IMG/VR virus record: IMGVR_UViG_2657245634_000021 | Span: 1-6,535 of that record | Reading direction: 5' to 3' (one strand) | DNA length: 6,535 bases | Origin: a virus | Taxonomy: Duplodnaviria; Heunggongvirae; Uroviricota; Caudoviricetes | In this document: positions 1,102 through 6,535 of the stretch, in pieces | How the letters are laid out: each line of letters opens with the position of its first letter | Numbering within the stretch: position 1 is the stretch's first letter | Translations under genes and position numbers: made by a program | Notes under the pieces: generated by a model | Databases searched by the model: none | What the model was told of the DNA's origin: nothing | Seen by the model: the letters and a program-made list of their open reading frames with translations, nothing else

Positions 1102-1601
1102 TGTCCCTCACCCGCTTGTTGATCCGCGATTTCCGCAACATTGAAACCGCGGATCTCGCTTTATCTCCCGGCTTTAACTTTCTGGTAGGTGCCAACGGCA
1201 GTGGCAAAACCAGCGTGCTGGAAGCCATCTATACGCTCGGCCATGGTCGGGCGTTTCGCAGTTTGCAGATTGGTCGCGTCATTCGCCATGAGCAGGAGGC
1301 ATTTGTTCTCCATGGGCGATTACAGGGCGAAGAGCGCGAGACGGCGATTGGCTTAACCAAGGACAAACAGGGCGACAGCAAAGTCCGCATCGACGGTACT
1401 GACGGGCATAAAGTCGCGGAACTGGCGCACCTGATGCCAATGCAGCTGATAACGCCAGAAGGGTTTACTTTACTCAACGGCGGCCCCAAATACAGAAGAG
1501 CATTCCTCGACTGGGGATGCTTTCACAACGAACCCGGATTTTTCACCGCCTGGAGCAATCTCAAGCGATTGCTCAAGCAGCGCAATGCGGCGCTGCGCCA
1601 G
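1101..1601 (+). pseudogene. recF: recF 5-prime fragment (about the first 167 codons), fused in frame to phage-derived sequence
   Basis: ATG at 1101 overlapping the dnaN stop. N-terminus [38 protein letters not shown] carries the RecF Walker A motif (GANGSGKT). RecF-like sequence is recognisable up to ...[14 protein letters not shown] (ending near 1601); after that the protein no longer resembles RecF, and the distal two-thirds of RecF (about 357 aa in E. coli, from memory) is absent. The hybrid ORF continues to a TGA at 1899-1901. Confidence 0.85.
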
Positions 1602-1901
1602 ACAAATGCGGAGCTGTACGAGTACCGCGAACAGAAAATTGCCGCCGGTTTTACGTGTCTGGCGGACGTCCCGGCGGACGATATCGACGGTGAAAGCATC
1701 AAAGTTTTTTACTACGAGCGCGCCGTGTGTGCGATGGCGACCGCGTCGCTTTATGAGCGTTATCGCGGCGTGGATGCCAGTGCGAAAGGTGACAAGAAGG
1801 CTGACAGCATTGACAGCACCATTGATGAGCTGTGGCGGGATATGCGCTGGGCGGTGGCGCGTATCCAGGACAAACCGCGCTGCATCGTGAGTCAAATCTG
1901 A
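1602..1901 (+). pseudogene. 3-prime fragment of the P2-type phage late gene upstream of X (probably head completion protein gpL), 5-prime end missing
   Basis: Same reading frame as the recF fragment. Translation [99 protein letters not shown] is unrelated to RecF. Its stop overlaps the start of X (TGATG at 1899-1903). Assignment to L is by position in the P2 late gene order (L-X-Y-K-lysA-lysB-R) and is not verified by search. Confidence 0.55.
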
Positions 1902-2104
1902 TGAAGACCTTTGCGCTACAGGGCGACACGCTCGACGCCATTTGTGTCCGGTATTACGGGCGCACTGAGGGCGTGGTCGAAGCCGTGCTCGCCGCAAATC
2001 CGGGACTGGCTGAACTGGGTGCAGTGCTGCCGCACGGCACCGCCGTCGAACTGCCCGACGTTCAGACCGCGCCCGTGGCTGAAACTGTCAATCTGTGGGA
2101 GTAA
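1901..2104 (+). CDS. X: P2-type phage tail protein X (gpX), 67 aa
   Basis: ATG at 1901 overlapping the upstream stop. Translation MKTFALQGDTLDAICVRYYGRTEGVVEAVLAANPGLAELGAVLPHGTAVELPDVQTAPVAETVNLWE matches recalled P2 gpX. The ORF-track start at 1832 is rejected as an upstream extension. Confidence 0.85.
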   Translation: MKTFALQGDTLDAICVRYYGRTEGVVEAVLAANPGLAELGAVLPHGTAVELPDVQTAPVAETVNLWE

Positions 2105-2107
2105 CGC

Positions 2108-2389
2108 ATGACAGCAGAAGAAAAAAGCGTCCTGTCGCTTTTTATGATTGGGGTGCTGATTGTTGTCGGCAAGGTGCTTGCCGGTGGTGAACCCATCACC
2201 CCGCGTCTGTTTATCGGGCGCATGTTGCTCGGTGGTTTTGTCTCGATGGTTGCCGGTGTTGTTCTGGTGCAGTTTCCTGACCTGTCACTGCCTGCGGTGT
2301 GCGGCATCGGCTCCATGCTGGGTATCGCCGGTTATCAGGTGATTGAGATTGCCATTCAGCGCCGCTTTAAGGGCAGGGGGAAACCGTAA
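2108..2389 (+). CDS. Y: P2-type holin (gpY), 93 aa
   Basis: ATG at 2108 with a GGGAG Shine-Dalgarno 6 nt upstream. The product is hydrophobic with membrane-spanning stretches (LSLFMIGVLIVVGKVLAGG..., GGFVSMVAGVVLVQF..., GIGSMLGIAGYQVI) and a basic C-terminus (RRFKGRGKP), typical of holins. Position and size fit P2 Y. Confidence 0.85.
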   Translation: MTAEEKSVLSLFMIGVLIVVGKVLAGGEPITPRLFIGRMLLGGFVSMVAGVVLVQFPDLSLPAVCGIGSMLGIAGYQVIEIAIQRRFKGRGKP

Positions 2390-2886
2390 TGCCGGTAATT
2401 AACACGCATCAGAATATCGCCGCCTTTCTCGACATGCTGGCGGTGTCCGAAGGGACGGCAAATCATCCGCTGACGAAAAACCGGGGCTATGACGTGATAG
2501 TCACCGGACTGGACGGGAAGCCGGAAATTTTCACCGACTACAGTGACCACCCGTTCGCGCATGGCCGACCGGCGAAGGTGTTTAACCGTCGCGGTGAAAA
2601 GTCCACGGCCTCCGGTCGCTATCAGCAGCTTTACCTGTTCTGGCCGCACTACCGCAAACAGCTTGCCCTGCCGGATTTCAGTCCGTTGTCACAGGACAGA
2701 CTCGCCATTCAGTTGATCCGCGAACGCGGTGCACTGGATGACATCCGGGCGGGACGCATTGAGCGCGCCATTTCACGCTGTCGCAATATCTGGGCGTCCC
2801 TGCCGGGTGCCGGTTACGGTCAGCGTGAGCATTCACTGGAAAAACTGGTCACCGTCTGGCGTACCGCTGGCGGCGTACCGGCTTAA
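2389..2886 (+). CDS. K: P2-type endolysin (gpK), 165 aa
   Basis: ATG at 2389 overlapping the Y stop (TAATG). Translation MPVINTHQNIAAFLDMLAVSEGTANHPLTKNRGYDVIVTG... matches recalled P2 gpK lysozyme. The holin-endolysin order is canonical. Confidence 0.9.
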   Translation: MPVINTHQNIAAFLDMLAVSEGTANHPLTKNRGYDVIVTGLDGKPEIFTDYSDHPFAHGRPAKVFNRRGEKSTASGRYQQLYLFWPHYRKQLALPDFSPLSQDRLAIQLIRERGALDDIRAGRIERAISRCRNIWASLPGAGYGQREHSLEKLVTVWRTAGGVPA

Positions 2887-2900
2887 ACGGAGTAAACACC

Positions 2901-3326
2901 ATGAAGAAATTATCCCTTTCACTGATGCTGAACGTGTCGCTGGTGATGATGCTGGCACTGTCCCTGATTTACCCGCAGAGCGTGGCCGTCAGTTTTGTCG
3001 CCGCCTGGGCGATTCTGGCGACGGTTATCTGTGTGGTTGCCGGTGGTGTCGGCGTGTATGCCACCGAGTATGTACTTGAACGCTACGGGCGGGAGCTGCC
3101 GCCGGAATCGCTGGCCGTGAAGATTGTCACGTCGCTGTTTTTGCAGCCGGTGCCGTGGCGCAGACGGGCGGCGGCTCTGGTGGTGATGGTGGCGACGTTT
3201 ATCTCGCTGGTCGCTGCCGGGTGGATTTTTACTGCGCTGATTTACCTCGTGGCGTCGGTGTTCTTCCGGCTGATACGTACGGCCTGTCGTCAGCGTTTTG
3301 AGGGGCGGGAACCATGTCAAAGCTGA
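2901..3326 (+). CDS. lysA: P2-type lysis accessory membrane protein LysA, 141 aa
   Basis: ATG at 2901 with GGAG upstream. The product is strongly hydrophobic with several predicted transmembrane segments. Position immediately after K matches P2 lysA. Confidence 0.8.
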   Translation: MKKLSLSLMLNVSLVMMLALSLIYPQSVAVSFVAAWAILATVICVVAGGVGVYATEYVLERYGRELPPESLAVKIVTSLFLQPVPWRRRAAALVVMVATFISLVAAGWIFTALIYLVASVFFRLIRTACRQRFEGREPCQS

Positions 3327-3784
3327 TGATTGTGCTGGTCGTGTTGTTATCGCTGGCGGTGGCCGGTCTGTTTCTGGCGAAGCATGAAAACGCCAGCCTG
3401 CGCACCTCGCTGGACAGGGCGAACAACGTCGCCAGCGGGCAGCAGACGACCATCACCATGCTGAAAAATCAGCTTCATGTTGCCCTCACCAGAGCAGACA
3501 AAAACGAGCTGGCGCAGGTGGCACTGCGTCAGGAACTGGAGAACGCGGCGAAGCGTGAAGCACAGCGCGAGAAAACCATCACGAGGTTACTGAATGAAAA
3601 CGAAGATTTTCGCCGCTGGTACGGCGCTGACCTGCCTGATGCTGTGCGCCGGTTGCACCAGCGCCCCGCCTGCACCGACGCCAGTGATTGTCCCCAACGC
3701 CTGCCCGAAAGTGAGTCTTTGCCCGATGCCGGGCAGCGCCCCGGAGACGAACGGCGATTTAAGTGCCGATATCCGGCAGCTTGA
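3314..3784 (+). CDS. lysB: P2-type LysB, Rz-like inner-membrane spanin, 156 aa as read
   Basis: ATG at 3314 overlaps the lysA 3-prime end by 13 nt. N-terminal transmembrane segment (MSKLMIVLVVLLSLAVAGLFLA) followed by a charged, probably helical periplasmic region, typical of i-spanins. Position matches P2 lysB. Confidence 0.8.
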   Translation: MSKLMIVLVVLLSLAVAGLFLAKHENASLRTSLDRANNVASGQQTTITMLKNQLHVALTRADKNELAQVALRQELENAAKREAQREKTITRLLNENEDFRRWYGADLPDAVRRLHQRPACTDASDCPQRLPESESLPDAGQRPGDERRFKCRYPAA

Positions 3785-3884
3785 GAACGCGCTGGCGCGC
3801 TGTGCCAGCCAGGTAAAAATGATTAAACACTGTCAGGACGAAAACGATGCTCAAACCCGACAGCCTGCGCAGGGCGCTGACTGA
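3594..3884 (+). CDS. lysC: P2-type LysC, Rz1-like outer-membrane lipoprotein spanin, 96 aa
   Basis: ATG at 3594 with GAGG 7 nt upstream, in an alternative frame inside lysB, extending past the lysB stop and into the start of R. Signal peptide with a lipobox-like Cys (MKTKIFAAGTALTCLMLCAGC) followed by a Pro-rich segment (TSAPPAPTPVIVPNACP), hallmarks of o-spanins. Confidence 0.75.
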   Translation: MKTKIFAAGTALTCLMLCAGCTSAPPAPTPVIVPNACPKVSLCPMPGSAPETNGDLSADIRQLENALARCASQVKMIKHCQDENDAQTRQPAQGAD

Positions 3885-4149
3885 TGCCGTCACGGTGCTG
3901 AAAACCAGTCCCGAGATGCTGCGGATATTCGTGGATAACGGGAGTATTGCCTCCACACTGGCGGCGTCGCTGTCATTTGAAAAGCGTTACACGCTCAATG
4001 TCATTGTGACCGACTTTACCGGTGATTTTGACCTGCTCATCGTGCCGGTGCTGGCGTGGCTGCGGGAAAATCAGCCCGACATCATGACCACCGACGAAGG
4101 CCAGAAAAAGGGCTTCACGTTTTATGCAGACATCAACAATGACAGCAGC
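3847..4149 (+). pseudogene. R: P2-type tail completion protein gpR, 5-prime fragment (about 100 codons), 3-prime end replaced
   Basis: ATG at 3847. Translation MLKPDSLRRALTDAVTVLKTSPEMLRIFVDNGSIASTLAASLSFEKRYTLNVIVTDFTGDFDLLIVPVLAWLRENQPDIMTTDEGQKKGFTFYADINNDSS matches recalled P2 gpR. The remaining 24 codons of the ORF (to 4224) are low-complexity and are the antisense of a well-formed ParA-like coding sequence, so I place the breakpoint near 4147-4160. The endpoint is approximate. Confidence 0.7.
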
Positions 4150-4361
4150 TTTGATATCAGCATATCAAATTTCTCAACAAGGGTTATTGCTGGTAACAGT
4201 CCTGCAGCTTCTCGTTCCGCATGATGTTTTGCGGCTGTTCGTTGTAGATCTCCGTTTAACAGGCAGACTTCCCTTCCTTTATTTGCTAGAGCAATAGCCA
4301 GGTTTGATGCAATGGTAGTTTTCCCTGAACCACCTTTGTTCCCACCAACTACAGTAATCAT
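4150..4361 (-). pseudogene. ParA-like (type Ib, deviant Walker A) partition ATPase, N-terminal fragment of about 70 codons
   Basis: Minus-strand ATG at 4359-4361 with GAGG 5-8 nt upstream. Translation MITVVGGNKGGSGKTTIASNLAIALANKGREVCLLNGDLQRTAA... has the deviant Walker A KGGSGKTT (4314-4346) and the downstream D-x-Q region typical of ParA/MinD/Soj ATPases. The ORF ends after 79 aa where it runs into antisense P2 R sequence; intact ParA proteins are about 200 aa or more. Confidence 0.7.
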
Positions 4362-4589
4362 TGCAACCTCATAAATATGATGTGTGAAGTATGATGATAT
4401 TTTGACACGGTAACCTGAGGTGTCAATATGTGTTCATATTTATGAAGTATGAAATATGAAGTGTGTCATGTGATGTAATAAATAATACTTGTGTTTTGTG
4501 ATTTCATAACTATGATAGTGCTCAAATTGAGTATTACATTGCAACCAGAAACAATGATTTACTCAGATTGAGTATTTAAGGGGCTATAG
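4362..4589. promoter_or_regulatory. AT-rich divergent intergenic region with iteron-like repeats; candidate parC-type centromere and promoter/operator
   Basis: Four copies of the octamer TATGA(A/T)G(T/A) at 4376, 4390, 4441 and 4455, as two pairs with 14-bp spacing. The pairs flank a 7-bp inverted repeat TTGACAC (4402-4408) / GTGTCAA (4420-4426) that presents TTGACA, a perfect -35 hexamer, on both strands. A TATGAT -10-like hexamer sits at 4511-4516 and an AAGGGG Shine-Dalgarno at 4577-4582 before the parM ATG. Function is inferred by analogy with R1 parC, where ParR-bound iterons flank the promoter. Confidence 0.5.
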
Positions 4590-5561
4590 ATGAACGTATA
4601 CTGCGATGATGGTTCAACAACAATCAAGTTGGCATGGAATGATAATGGGGAAATCTGTAAGTCGTTGTCGCAAAACTCATTTCGTCATGGATGGAAGGTT
4701 GACGGGTTAGGAATTCGCCAGACATTTAACTATGAACTGGATGGTAAAAAATACACGTATGATGAAGTTAGCAACCAATCTATTCTTACGACTCATATTG
4801 AGTATCAATATACGGATGTTAACCTGTTAGCTGTGCATCACGCTTTACTGAATAGTGGATTAGCGCCTCAGCCTGTATCATTGACTGTGACTTTGCCTAT
4901 CAGTGAGTTCTATACGAAAGAGTGTCAAAAAAATGAACTCAACATTCAGCGTAAAATTGAGAATTTAATGGGGCCGATTCGTCTTAATAAAGGCGATGTT
5001 TTCACCATTGAACACGTTGATGTGATGCCTGAATCATTGCCAGCTGTGTTTTCTCGTCTGGTCGTGGATAAAGTTGGTCAGTTCGAAAAATCGCTGGTAG
5101 TTGATATTGGCGGCACTACGCTTGATGTTGGTGTTATCGTTGGTCAATTTGACTCTGTAAGTGCCATTCATGGTAATTCTGGCATTGGTGTATCTTCAGT
5201 TACGAAAGCTGCAATGAGTGCATTGCGCATGGCATCCAGTGATACCAGTTTCCTCGTTGCAGATGAATTGATTAAACGTCGTAATGACCCGGACTTTGTT
5301 CGGCAGGTTATAAATGACGAAACAAAAACTGATCTGGTCCTTAATACCATTGAGGGGGCTATTGCCAGTTTGGGGGAGCAAGTAGTCAATGAGCTCGGTG
5401 ATTTCCATCATGTGAATCGTGTTTATGTTGTCGGTGGTGGGGCCCCGTTGATCTATGATTCGATAAAAACGGCATGGCACCATCTTGGGCAAAAAGTAGT
5501 GATGATGGAGTCGCCACAGACAGCACTGGTTGAAGCTATCGCGGCTTTCAAAGAGGAGTAA
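4590..5561 (+). CDS. parM: ParM/StbA-family actin-like plasmid segregation ATPase, 323 aa
   Basis: ATG at 4590 with an AAGGGG Shine-Dalgarno. Actin-fold phosphate-binding motifs DDGSTTIKL near the N-terminus and VVDIGGTTLDV mid-protein. Collinear similarity to recalled plasmid R1 ParM (for example FNY, YQYTDVN..AVHHALL, FTI..V.VMPES.PA, GVS.VT, VVGGGA). Confidence 0.9.
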   Translation: MNVYCDDGSTTIKLAWNDNGEICKSLSQNSFRHGWKVDGLGIRQTFNYELDGKKYTYDEVSNQSILTTHIEYQYTDVNLLAVHHALLNSGLAPQPVSLTVTLPISEFYTKECQKNELNIQRKIENLMGPIRLNKGDVFTIEHVDVMPESLPAVFSRLVVDKVGQFEKSLVVDIGGTTLDVGVIVGQFDSVSAIHGNSGIGVSSVTKAAMSALRMASSDTSFLVADELIKRRNDPDFVRQVINDETKTDLVLNTIEGAIASLGEQVVNELGDFHHVNRVYVVGGGAPLIYDSIKTAWHHLGQKVVMMESPQTALVEAIAAFKEE

Positions 5562-5565
5562 TATT

Positions 5566-5958
5566 GTGGACGATGAACGGAAAAGGAAAAAATACACACT
5601 TTATCTGCATCCGGAAAAAGCTGCAGACTTTCAAACTTTGGAAGCGATAGAGTCCGTTCCGCGTTCTGAGCGTGGTGAGCTGTTCCGGAATGCATTTATT
5701 TCTGGAATGGCGTTACACCAACTTGATCCTCGCCTGCCTGTATTGCTGACTGCCATTTTGAGCGAGGAGTTTTCAGCAGATCAGGTTGTAACCTTACTCA
5801 GTCAGACGACTGGATGGAAGCCTTCTCAGGCCGATATCAGAGCTGTGTTGACTGAACTCGGTGCTTCGCAATTTGCTGAAAAAATGCCTCCTTCTGCTAC
5901 TGATTCGGTGCAGGAGGCAATGAATGATGTGCGTCTTAAAATGAAAAAATTATTCTGA
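5566..5958 (+). CDS. parR: ParR/StbB-like centromere-binding adaptor protein, about 130 aa
   Basis: Proposed GTG start at 5566, 7 nt after a strong AAGAGGAG Shine-Dalgarno formed by the last parM codons; stop TGA at 5956-5958. The segment ESVPRSERGELFRNAFISGMALHQLDPRLPVLL resembles R1 ParR (SIPQGERSRLNRAALTAGLALYRQDPRTPFLL, from memory). The ORF-track ATG at 5530 lies inside parM with no Shine-Dalgarno and is rejected. Confidence 0.75.
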   Translation: MDDERKRKKYTLYLHPEKAADFQTLEAIESVPRSERGELFRNAFISGMALHQLDPRLPVLLTAILSEEFSADQVVTLLSQTTGWKPSQADIRAVLTELGASQFAEKMPPSATDSVQEAMNDVRLKMKKLF

Positions 5959-5969
5959 TATATCAGAAT
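5944..5969 (-). terminator. Possible weak intrinsic terminator for the minus-strand umuC-like gene
   Basis: Perfect 18-bp palindrome ATTCTGATATATCAGAAT (5952-5969) about 20 nt past the umuC-like stop (5990-5992), followed on the minus strand by a U-tract (complement of AAAAAA at 5945-5950). The stem is AU-rich and has no real loop, so terminator strength is doubtful. It overlaps the parR stop codon. Confidence 0.3.
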
Positions 5970-5989
5970 GAAGCAATGGGGATCTCAGT

Positions 5990-6535
5990 CTATTGTGTTG
6001 TATACGAAGGCGATAGCATTTCCTGTTTCATTTGCCATTCAGGGGCGGTTCCTCGCCCCGCAAACCACACTTTCCCTTTTCCCGACTGGTTCAGTTCATC
6101 GAGTGTTTTCATTAACTTTTCACTGTTTTTACGGGGCTGGATTTCATCAAATAATCCCGGCTGCGCTATACCCGATGGTGTGAAATCAGCCAGCATGACT
6201 CCTGCCTTCATATAGCGGTACCCTTCACGCCAGACATGGTTTAAGGCTCTGCATGCGGCGGCAATAATGTCCCGGCTGTCCTGTGTGGGCAATGAAAGCT
6301 TTTCCACAGCGGCATTGCTGTAACAGGGTTCTTTTACTGCAAAGGGGGATGTCCGTACAAATGTCGTCACCTGCCGGCAATACTGACGCTCCCCACGTAG
6401 TTTCTCTGCGGCCCGCTCAGCATACTGAACAACAGCCTGGTGCATGGCATCTTTGTCTGTGATTCGTTCACCAAAACTGCGACTACAGACAATCTGCTGT
6501 TTTGCCGGTGGTGCTTCTTCCAGGGATATGCAGGA
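5990..6535 (-). CDS. umuC: UmuC/MucB/ImpB-family Y-family DNA polymerase (Pol V catalytic subunit), C-terminal about 180 codons; 5-prime end beyond the window
   Basis: Minus-strand frame is open from the window edge (6535) to the TAG at 5990-5992; I translated 6446-6535 by hand (SCISLEEAPPAKQQIVCSRSFGERITDKDA) and it continues into the ORF-track protein. The sequence RSFGERITDKDAMHQAVVQYAERAAEKLRGERQYCRQVTTFVRTSPF...VWFAGRGTAPEWQMKQEMLSPSYTTQ is collinear with the recalled UmuC C-terminus (RAAEKLR, TSPF, FAGQG..QWQMK..MLSP.YTT). Confidence 0.85.
   Translation of the reverse strand, partial: SCISLEEAPPAKQQIVCSRSFGERITDKDAMHQAVVQYAERAAEKLRGERQYCRQVTTFVRTSPFAVKEPCYSNAAVEKLSLPTQDSRDIIAAACRALNHVWREGYRYMKAGVMLADFTPSGIAQPGLFDEIQPRKNSEKLMKTLDELNQSGKGKVWFAGRGTAPEWQMKQEMLSPSYTTQ

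Follow-up and report, generated by a model that had tools for sequence, protein, structure and literature searches.

The window, the whole stretch of 6,535 nucleotides that was analyzed, contains an intergenic spacer of 228 bp at positions 4362-4589. The spacer separates a truncated type Ib parA gene on the minus strand from the parM-parR gene pair on the plus strand. The genes and the translation signal bordering the spacer are as follows:

4361 to 4164, minus strand: 5' fragment of parA (type Ib, the ATPase of par2), 66 codons; the mechanical open reading frame runs on to 4122
4578 to 4583, plus strand: Shine-Dalgarno sequence of parM, AAGGGG
4590 to 5561, plus strand: parM, the actin-like ATPase of par1 (Pfam StbA_N, 1e-63; ParM C-terminal domain, 4e-44)
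5566 to 5958, plus strand: parR (stbB), the ribbon-helix-helix (RHH) centromere-binding protein of par1 (Pfam Plasmid_stab_B, 7e-30)

In the PDB, the parM product matches R1 ParM (1.5e-75), and ParR is identical to entry 2JD3 at 128 of 130 positions over its full length (98.5%). The latter entry is the ParR protein of pB171 (PMC3074162). The 79-residue open reading frame of the parA fragment has Pfam matches to CbiA, AAA_31, ParA and MipZ and scores 92% in tblastn over residues 1-75; ungapped identity with the parA gene of plasmid 55989p begins at 4163. Native plasmids, including 55989p, carry parB and parA transcribed leftward, a spacer of 221-243 bp, and parM and parR transcribed rightward, in this order. 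In these plasmids, parB encodes 91 and the Walker-type parA 214 amino acids, and the spacer of 55989p has a length of 228 bp, with four intergenic differences from the window allele. The stretch 4100-6000 was found at a coverage of at least 80% in 979 PLSDB plasmids, mostly conjugative IncF-type plasmids of Escherichia, Salmonella and Klebsiella, and the region occurs at 95-99% identity in more than 1000 plasmids.

Plasmid pB171 carries a "double par locus", in which par2 (type Ib) and par1 (type II) diverge around the common site parC1 (PMC4270457, PMC11950199). Because ParR is nearly identical to 2JD3, the gene order is the same and more than 1000 plasmids carry the region, we are highly confident that 4362-4589 is the pB171-type parC1, the shared centromere and operator of par1 and par2, holding ParB heptads, ParR boxes and the parA promoter P2. 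The site is already known and characterized, being the pB171-type parC1 itself and not a relative of it. As in pB171, the divergent type Ib parAB and type II parMR operons surround a common region of about 200 bp, and native plasmids carry a second array of short repeats downstream of parB. The site itself has no substantial difference from the pB171 parC1; only the par2 side of the window is truncated, with neither parB nor the downstream array parC2 present and parA cut after 66 codons where it meets P2-like phage DNA. The double par locus of pB171 and its parC1 were reportedly described by Ebersbach and Gerdes in 2001 and by Ringgaard et al. in 2007.

The truncation reflects the composition of the window, which consists of three mutually unrelated E. 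coli sequences that abut sharply near 1600 and 4163:

1 to 1601: dnaN and truncated recF of E. coli, 100% match
1600 to 4163: segment of a P2-like prophage, 100% match to CP077477
about 4150/4164 to 6535: plasmid DNA with truncated parA, parC1, parM, parR and truncated umuC, 99.6% match

The prophage segment encodes a truncated head completion protein, tail protein X, holin, lysozyme, LysA/B/C and a truncated tail completion protein R. The recF, phage R and parA genes are thus all incomplete in the window. Among 5,426 complete E. coli genomes, we found no place covering 80% of the window, which probably arose by chimeric assembly or by construction.

For comparison, a scan for ParM relatives with one genome per species gave 30 loci, and the 14 closest loci, with five plasmid records included, were used as the comparison set. 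Four loci of this set carry parMR only, namely those of Citrobacter werkmanii (L011), Dryocola (L012), a Pseudomonas lundensis contig (L013) and Serratia (L014). Apart from the comparison, we observed parM fragments of the enterobacterial type, 56-65% identical, in assemblies assigned to an actinomycete (Catenulispora yoronensis, L033, a contig of 558 bp), a firmicute (Vagococcus sp., L018) and a Saccharibacteria MAG (Candidatus Nanosynbacter, L035). These three fragments are probably contaminating plasmid contigs in the assemblies.

The most prominent elements of the spacer are two arrays of short repeats with the consensus T(A/G)TGA(A/T)N and a period of 7 bp, located at 4367-4396 and 4432-4517:

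4367 to 4396, plus strand: left heptad array (putative ParB sites), with TATGATG at 4376, TGTGAAG at 4383 and TATGATG at 4390
4432 to 4517, plus strand: right heptad array (putative ParB sites) of about 12 units, all in phase at 7 bp
4441, 4448, 4455, 4462 (weak), 4469, 4490 (weak), 4497 and 4511, plus strand: direct units of the right array
4476 and 4483: degenerate AT-rich units of the right array
4432 to 4438 and 4502 to 4508: inverted units of the right array

The initial annotation of this DNA had reported the octamer TATGA(A/T)G(T/A) at 4376, 4390, 4441 and 4455, and these four copies are indeed present, against 0.25 expected (P = 2e-4; 5000 dinucleotide-preserving shuffles of 4362-4589). 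The octamers had been grouped into pairs with a 14-bp spacing. Whereas the copies are real, the true period is 7 bp and not 14 bp, because a third unit sits inside each pair; these middle units, TGTGAAG at 4383 and TATGAAA at 4448, fall outside the strict octamer pattern and had been overlooked. Copies of the core T[AG]TGA[AT] are found on the plus strand at 4376, 4383, 4390, 4441, 4448, 4455, 4469, 4497 and 4511, with one 7-bp register in each cluster. The lag-7 autocorrelation of 4434-4517 is 0.52, compared with 0.32 ± 0.05 after shuffling, and was reached by none of 5000 shuffles; Tandem Repeats Finder returned periods of 7 (TATGAAG) and 28.

The left array also contains an inverted unit at 4367-4373, which reads TATGAGG on the minus strand and overlaps the Shine-Dalgarno sequence of parA. 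The array spans the predicted +1 and the leader of the parA promoter and is perfectly conserved in the Enterobacter-type locus despite an overall identity of 73%. Alleles of the spacer differ by exactly one unit in length (221 vs. 228 bp and 236 vs. 243 bp), and of the four differences from 55989p, two (4377 and 4463) exchange A and G at the second position of a unit, which is the degenerate one. The alleles therefore behave as 7-bp modules, which supports the assignment of the heptads to ParB discussed below.

A second repeat class, CTCA(A/G)ATTGAGTATT, is located between the right array and parM at 4521-4535 and 4562-4576. It was missing from the initial annotation and is unrelated to the heptads. 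A third, similar box is found within the parM gene:

4521 to 4535, plus strand: distal ParR-type box CTCAAATTGAGTATT, with the palindromic core CTCA-N3-TGAG and the exact 10-mer ATTGAGTATT at 4526 to 4535
4562 to 4576, plus strand: proximal ParR-type box CTCAGATTGAGTATT, with the 10-mer ATTGAGTATT at 4567 to 4576
4792 to 4806: third ParR-type box CTCATATTGAGTATC inside parM, codons 68-72 (+202), identical at 13 of 15 positions to both upstream boxes

The proximal box is located at a distance of 41 bp from the distal one, and 14 bp separate it from the downstream ATG of parM. The motif CTCAnnnTGAG occurs three times in the window, compared with 0.1 expected, and every close relative has 2-4 copies of it upstream of parM, whether parAB is present or not. 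The two CTCA(A/G)ATTGAGTATT boxes are thus likely ParR sites, judging from this distribution. The exact copies of ATTGAGTATT at 4526-4535 and 4567-4576 would then be the published pB171 repeats; going by secondary citations, the B and R repeats of the literature would correspond one by one to the units described here.

Two further observations concern this motif. CTCAnnnTGAG boxes are found within about 160 bp upstream of parM also in the more distant loci L015-L023, though their ParR proteins are only 27-46% identical, which suggests a half-site preference common to a broad ParR clade. Enterobacter-, Citrobacter- and Dryocola-type loci (L002, L009, L010 and L012) have an additional CTCAnnnTGAG where parR ends, at +1366/+1368 relative to the ATG of parM; the window has no such box at the equivalent place (around 5956).

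The intragenic box is retained at +202/+205, with the synonymous sites all unchanged, in the E. coli-, Enterobacter-, Citrobacter- and Dryocola-type loci. In L013 and L014, it is disrupted (ACC CAC ATT GAG TAT), with the encoded peptide unchanged. The box could be either an internal ParR site or an inherited coincidence.

The initial annotation had placed a perfect -35 hexamer on both strands of the gap between the heptad arrays, serving two divergent promoters. We ran promoter predictions on both strands and list the candidates here:

4399 to 4426, minus strand: predicted parA promoter P2, with the -35 box TTGACA at 4426->4421, a 16-nt spacer, TG at 4407->4406 and the -10 box CAAAAT at 4404->4399
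4527 to 4555, plus strand: candidate A for the parM promoter P1, TTGAGT-17-AACAAT, score 7.5; the distal ParR box contains its -35 box, and the proximal box its predicted start
4489 to 4516, plus strand: candidate B for P1, TTGTGT-16-TATGAT, score 6.5, inside the right heptad array
4402 to 4429, plus strand: candidate C for P1, TTGACA-16-TGnCAATAT, the mirror image of P2 and the plus-strand promoter of the initial annotation

P2, with a predicted start near 4392, is the sole promoter match of the consensus scan. Using a simple weight matrix, we observed TTGAC[AT]-16-CA[AG]AAT with the TG element as the top minus-strand candidate in all five diverged double loci. The minus-strand promoter is therefore kept in every one of them and is predicted to drive parA, whereas the plus-strand TTGACA promoter is not conserved, its hexamer being lost in the Enterobacter and Citrobacter relatives. 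The earlier proposal of -35 boxes in both directions is thus supported in part. In the E. coli-type alleles, the heptads, both promoter boxes and the ParR boxes are fixed. A consensus scan revealed no terminators in 4250-4700, and no Rfam family reached its gathering score anywhere in the window.

As for the allelic variation itself, substitutions among the E. coli-type alleles cluster in the 11 bp between TTGACAC and GTGTCAA and in 4427-4433, just past the -35 box of P2.

The three plus-strand candidates differ in their conservation and in their position relative to the ParR boxes, which overlap candidate A but neither B nor C. Candidate A has an equivalent in the par1-only relatives, which possess a strong TATAAT/TATAAA just upstream of the proximal box, and is weak in the Enterobacter type. 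Candidate B is located at exactly -101 from the parM ATG in five of the five diverged double loci, a conservation that could be explained equally well by the ParB units it overlaps. Candidate C has the best plus-strand score in the E. coli-type alleles (8.7-9.9). It is absent from three Enterobacter/Citrobacter-type loci, which read TTGTCA, CTGGCA or CTGTCA and have no -10 box. On sequence grounds, we prefer candidate A as the parM promoter, followed by C or B.

If candidate C were the parM promoter, P1 and P2 would form a mirror-symmetric, face-to-face overlapping pair between the ParB arrays; ParB would repress both promoters, and ParR would bind about 90-140 bp downstream of the P1 start. 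This arrangement is possible but, in our judgment, doubtful. Candidate C tops the plus-strand scores in the E. coli-type alleles with a TG extended -10 element, and the pair would give a simple account of the published regulatory cross-talk (PMC11950199, citing Ringgaard 2007). However, its plus-strand promoter is not conserved in the three diverged double loci mentioned above, a leader of about 150 nt with the ParR boxes far downstream of the start would be implied, and in the par1-only relatives a strong -10 box directly precedes the proximal ParR box.

The heptads are most likely ParB (par2) sites and not ParR sites, since they recur downstream of parB and are absent from the parMR relatives without parAB. 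In 55989p (L001), units of the heptad family follow parB at 2162-2290 in a single 7-bp register (parC2), reading TCATAAA TCATAAT TATGAAT TGTGATT ... TATGAAT TCACAAG TGTGATT TCATAAG, and in Enterobacter-type loci TCATACT TCACACA TCATACT TATGATG stands directly after parB. The 250 bp upstream of parM contain 9-11 heptad cores in the ten loci with parAB, compared with 1-4, which is about background, in the four parMR-only loci; this comparison covers few lineages, with two double-locus types and four par1-only loci. We thus observed the co-occurrence of each repeat class with its own protein pair. The 91-residue ParB protein, taken from L001, matches Pfam RHH_1 at residues 45-88 with 21.7 bits, barely above the cut-off of 20.5, and a phmmer search against the PDB (E<=10) found no solved RHH partition homologue of ParB, with adenylate cyclase noise as the only hits. 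The ParB protein of pB171 is listed as an RHH-type ParB (PMC13245405), and repeat arrays on both sides of the par operon, upstream as well as downstream, are described for pB171 (PMC7602700).

The copy numbers of the heptads may also be compared with those of the prototype. Ringgaard et al. (2007) are said to have reported 17 ParB repeats of six bp in parC1 and 18 in parC2; the former number agrees with the 5 + 12 register positions of the left and right arrays.

The initial annotation had regarded the octamers as ParR iterons of an R1-like parC, whose two clusters would flank divergent promoters, with ParR as both centromere binder and autoregulator. The region does lie directly upstream of parM-parR, the iteron clusters of R1 parC flank the promoter (reference given in PMC5016525), and the plus-strand TTGACA-16-TGnCAATAT scores well in the E. 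coli-type alleles. Nevertheless, we consider ParR iterons very improbable: L011-L014 keep ParM and ParR homologues together with the CTCAnnnTGAG boxes and yet have no heptads upstream of parM, and the heptads recur downstream of parB, distant from par1. The assignment of the octamers to ParR was thus not borne out, as the units accompany parB and are missing from the parMR-only loci. The broader proposal of a plasmid centromere that doubles as an operator between divergent partition operons, with repeat arrays flanking a core promoter, is supported, with ParB as the most likely owner of the arrays.

The inverted repeat between the arrays, TTGACAC at 4402-4408 and GTGTCAA at 4420-4426 around an 11-bp spacer, is present as previously noted. 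Counting both strands, TTGACAC was seen twice versus 0.07 expected (P = 0.0014; 5000 dinucleotide-preserving shuffles of 4362-4589). The right arm coincides with the -35 box of P2, and the extended -10 element of this promoter (TGTCAA...) is complementary to the left arm. The inverted repeat is accordingly the -35 and extended -10 boxes of the predicted P2, which happen to be mutual reverse complements, and not a separate operator. A dedicated operator for a dimeric host or plasmid regulator, separate from ParB and ParR, could account for a perfect 7-bp inverted repeat that is improbable by chance and for arms that are invariant among the E. coli-type alleles while the 11-bp spacer varies. We regard such an operator as highly unlikely, because the Enterobacter and Citrobacter loci lose the symmetry (TTGTCAC ... 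AGTCAAC in the Enterobacter type) but keep the -35 and TGn-10 roles at a constant spacing of 16 nt, and the locus has no candidate gene for the regulator. The role as P2 promoter boxes is the one retained in these diverged loci.

Replication iterons were rejected, since none of the native contexts has a neighboring rep gene and the units go along with parAB.

Two features of the locus are possibly unreported, the third ParR-type box inside parM and the mirror symmetry of the central promoter core. We give little credence to the reading that they are a functional intragenic ParR site, which would extend or loop the ParR complex, and, in the E. coli-type alleles, a palindromic core of 25 bp that could act bidirectionally under the control of ParB.

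We infer the binding of ParB and ParR, the repression and the position of the parM promoter from the arrangement of the sequence elements, which points to two unrelated sets of protein-binding repeats in parC1, the ParB heptads and the ParR boxes. RHH dimers of ParB would coat the heptad arrays cooperatively, presumably one per unit, and the coated arrays would constitute the par2 partition complex moved by ParA, while also repressing transcription. The two ParB arrays bracket a gap of 35 bp holding P2, and the left array extends over the predicted parA start site as well as its leader and Shine-Dalgarno sequence. Coating by ParB at 7-bp intervals would then shut off parA-parB while the partition complex forms, as omega does on the heptads of pSM19035. 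On the other side, binding of ParR to the two boxes would start the assembly of the par1 complex, by which ParM filaments are captured, and would subject the parM promoter to autoregulation. Candidate B is covered by the right heptad array, whose end is 10 bp away from candidate A, and either position could explain how par2 influences the regulation of par1. Mutual effects of the two divergent loci on expression have been reported (PMC11950199, citing Ringgaard 2007). Because parB is absent from the window, its heptads would, if this molecule is real, be orphan sites unless ParB is supplied in trans.

The parC1 site resembles two different known systems, R1 parC on the par1 side and the omega/parS heptad arrays on the par2 side. 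Like R1 parC of the type II ParMRC system, it lies immediately upstream of parM, contains repeat clusters flanking the core promoter and would be bound by an RHH ParR protein that autoregulates. R1 parC has ten ParR iterons of 11 bp in two blocks of five (cited in PMC5016525 and PMC9426499). Unlike in R1, there are only two (possibly three) putative ParR boxes here, and the clusters flanking the promoter are tied to another protein and operon.

As in the parS sites of omega from pSM19035, the heptads are contiguous, unspaced 7-bp units in direct and inverted orientation that overlap promoters, and the presumed binding protein is a small RHH protein whose N-terminus is flexible. The heptad of omega reads WATCACW (PMC3074150), and its complement WGTGATW resembles the TGTGAT(T/G) units found here. 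In contrast to omega parS, the arrays of parC1 are split around a promoter and common to a second partition system, and the stoichiometry of one dimer per heptad is presumed here. The heptad arrays resemble omega/parS in mechanism rather than by demonstrated family membership, because ParB has no sequence match to the solved RHH partition proteins. The type Ib systems of pESBL (IncI) and TP228 (parH/ParG) likewise carry arrays of short repeats upstream, and pESBL also downstream (PMC7602700, PMC3130281). Unlike the heptads here, pESBL has octamers of 8 bp and TP228 has 4-bp boxes with AT spacers, and the proteins are unrelated.

The parC1 site of pB171 serves as a textbook model of plasmid partition, both of type Ib and of type II. 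With its allele present on more than 1000 sequenced IncF-type plasmids, the locus carries little weight as a discovery. The value of the analysis is corrective: each repeat class is assigned to its most likely protein, the inverted repeat is recognized as the boxes of the predicted parA promoter, and the missing parB is flagged. For annotation, the comparison of relatives with and without parAB offers a way to separate two overlapping centromeres from sequence alone.
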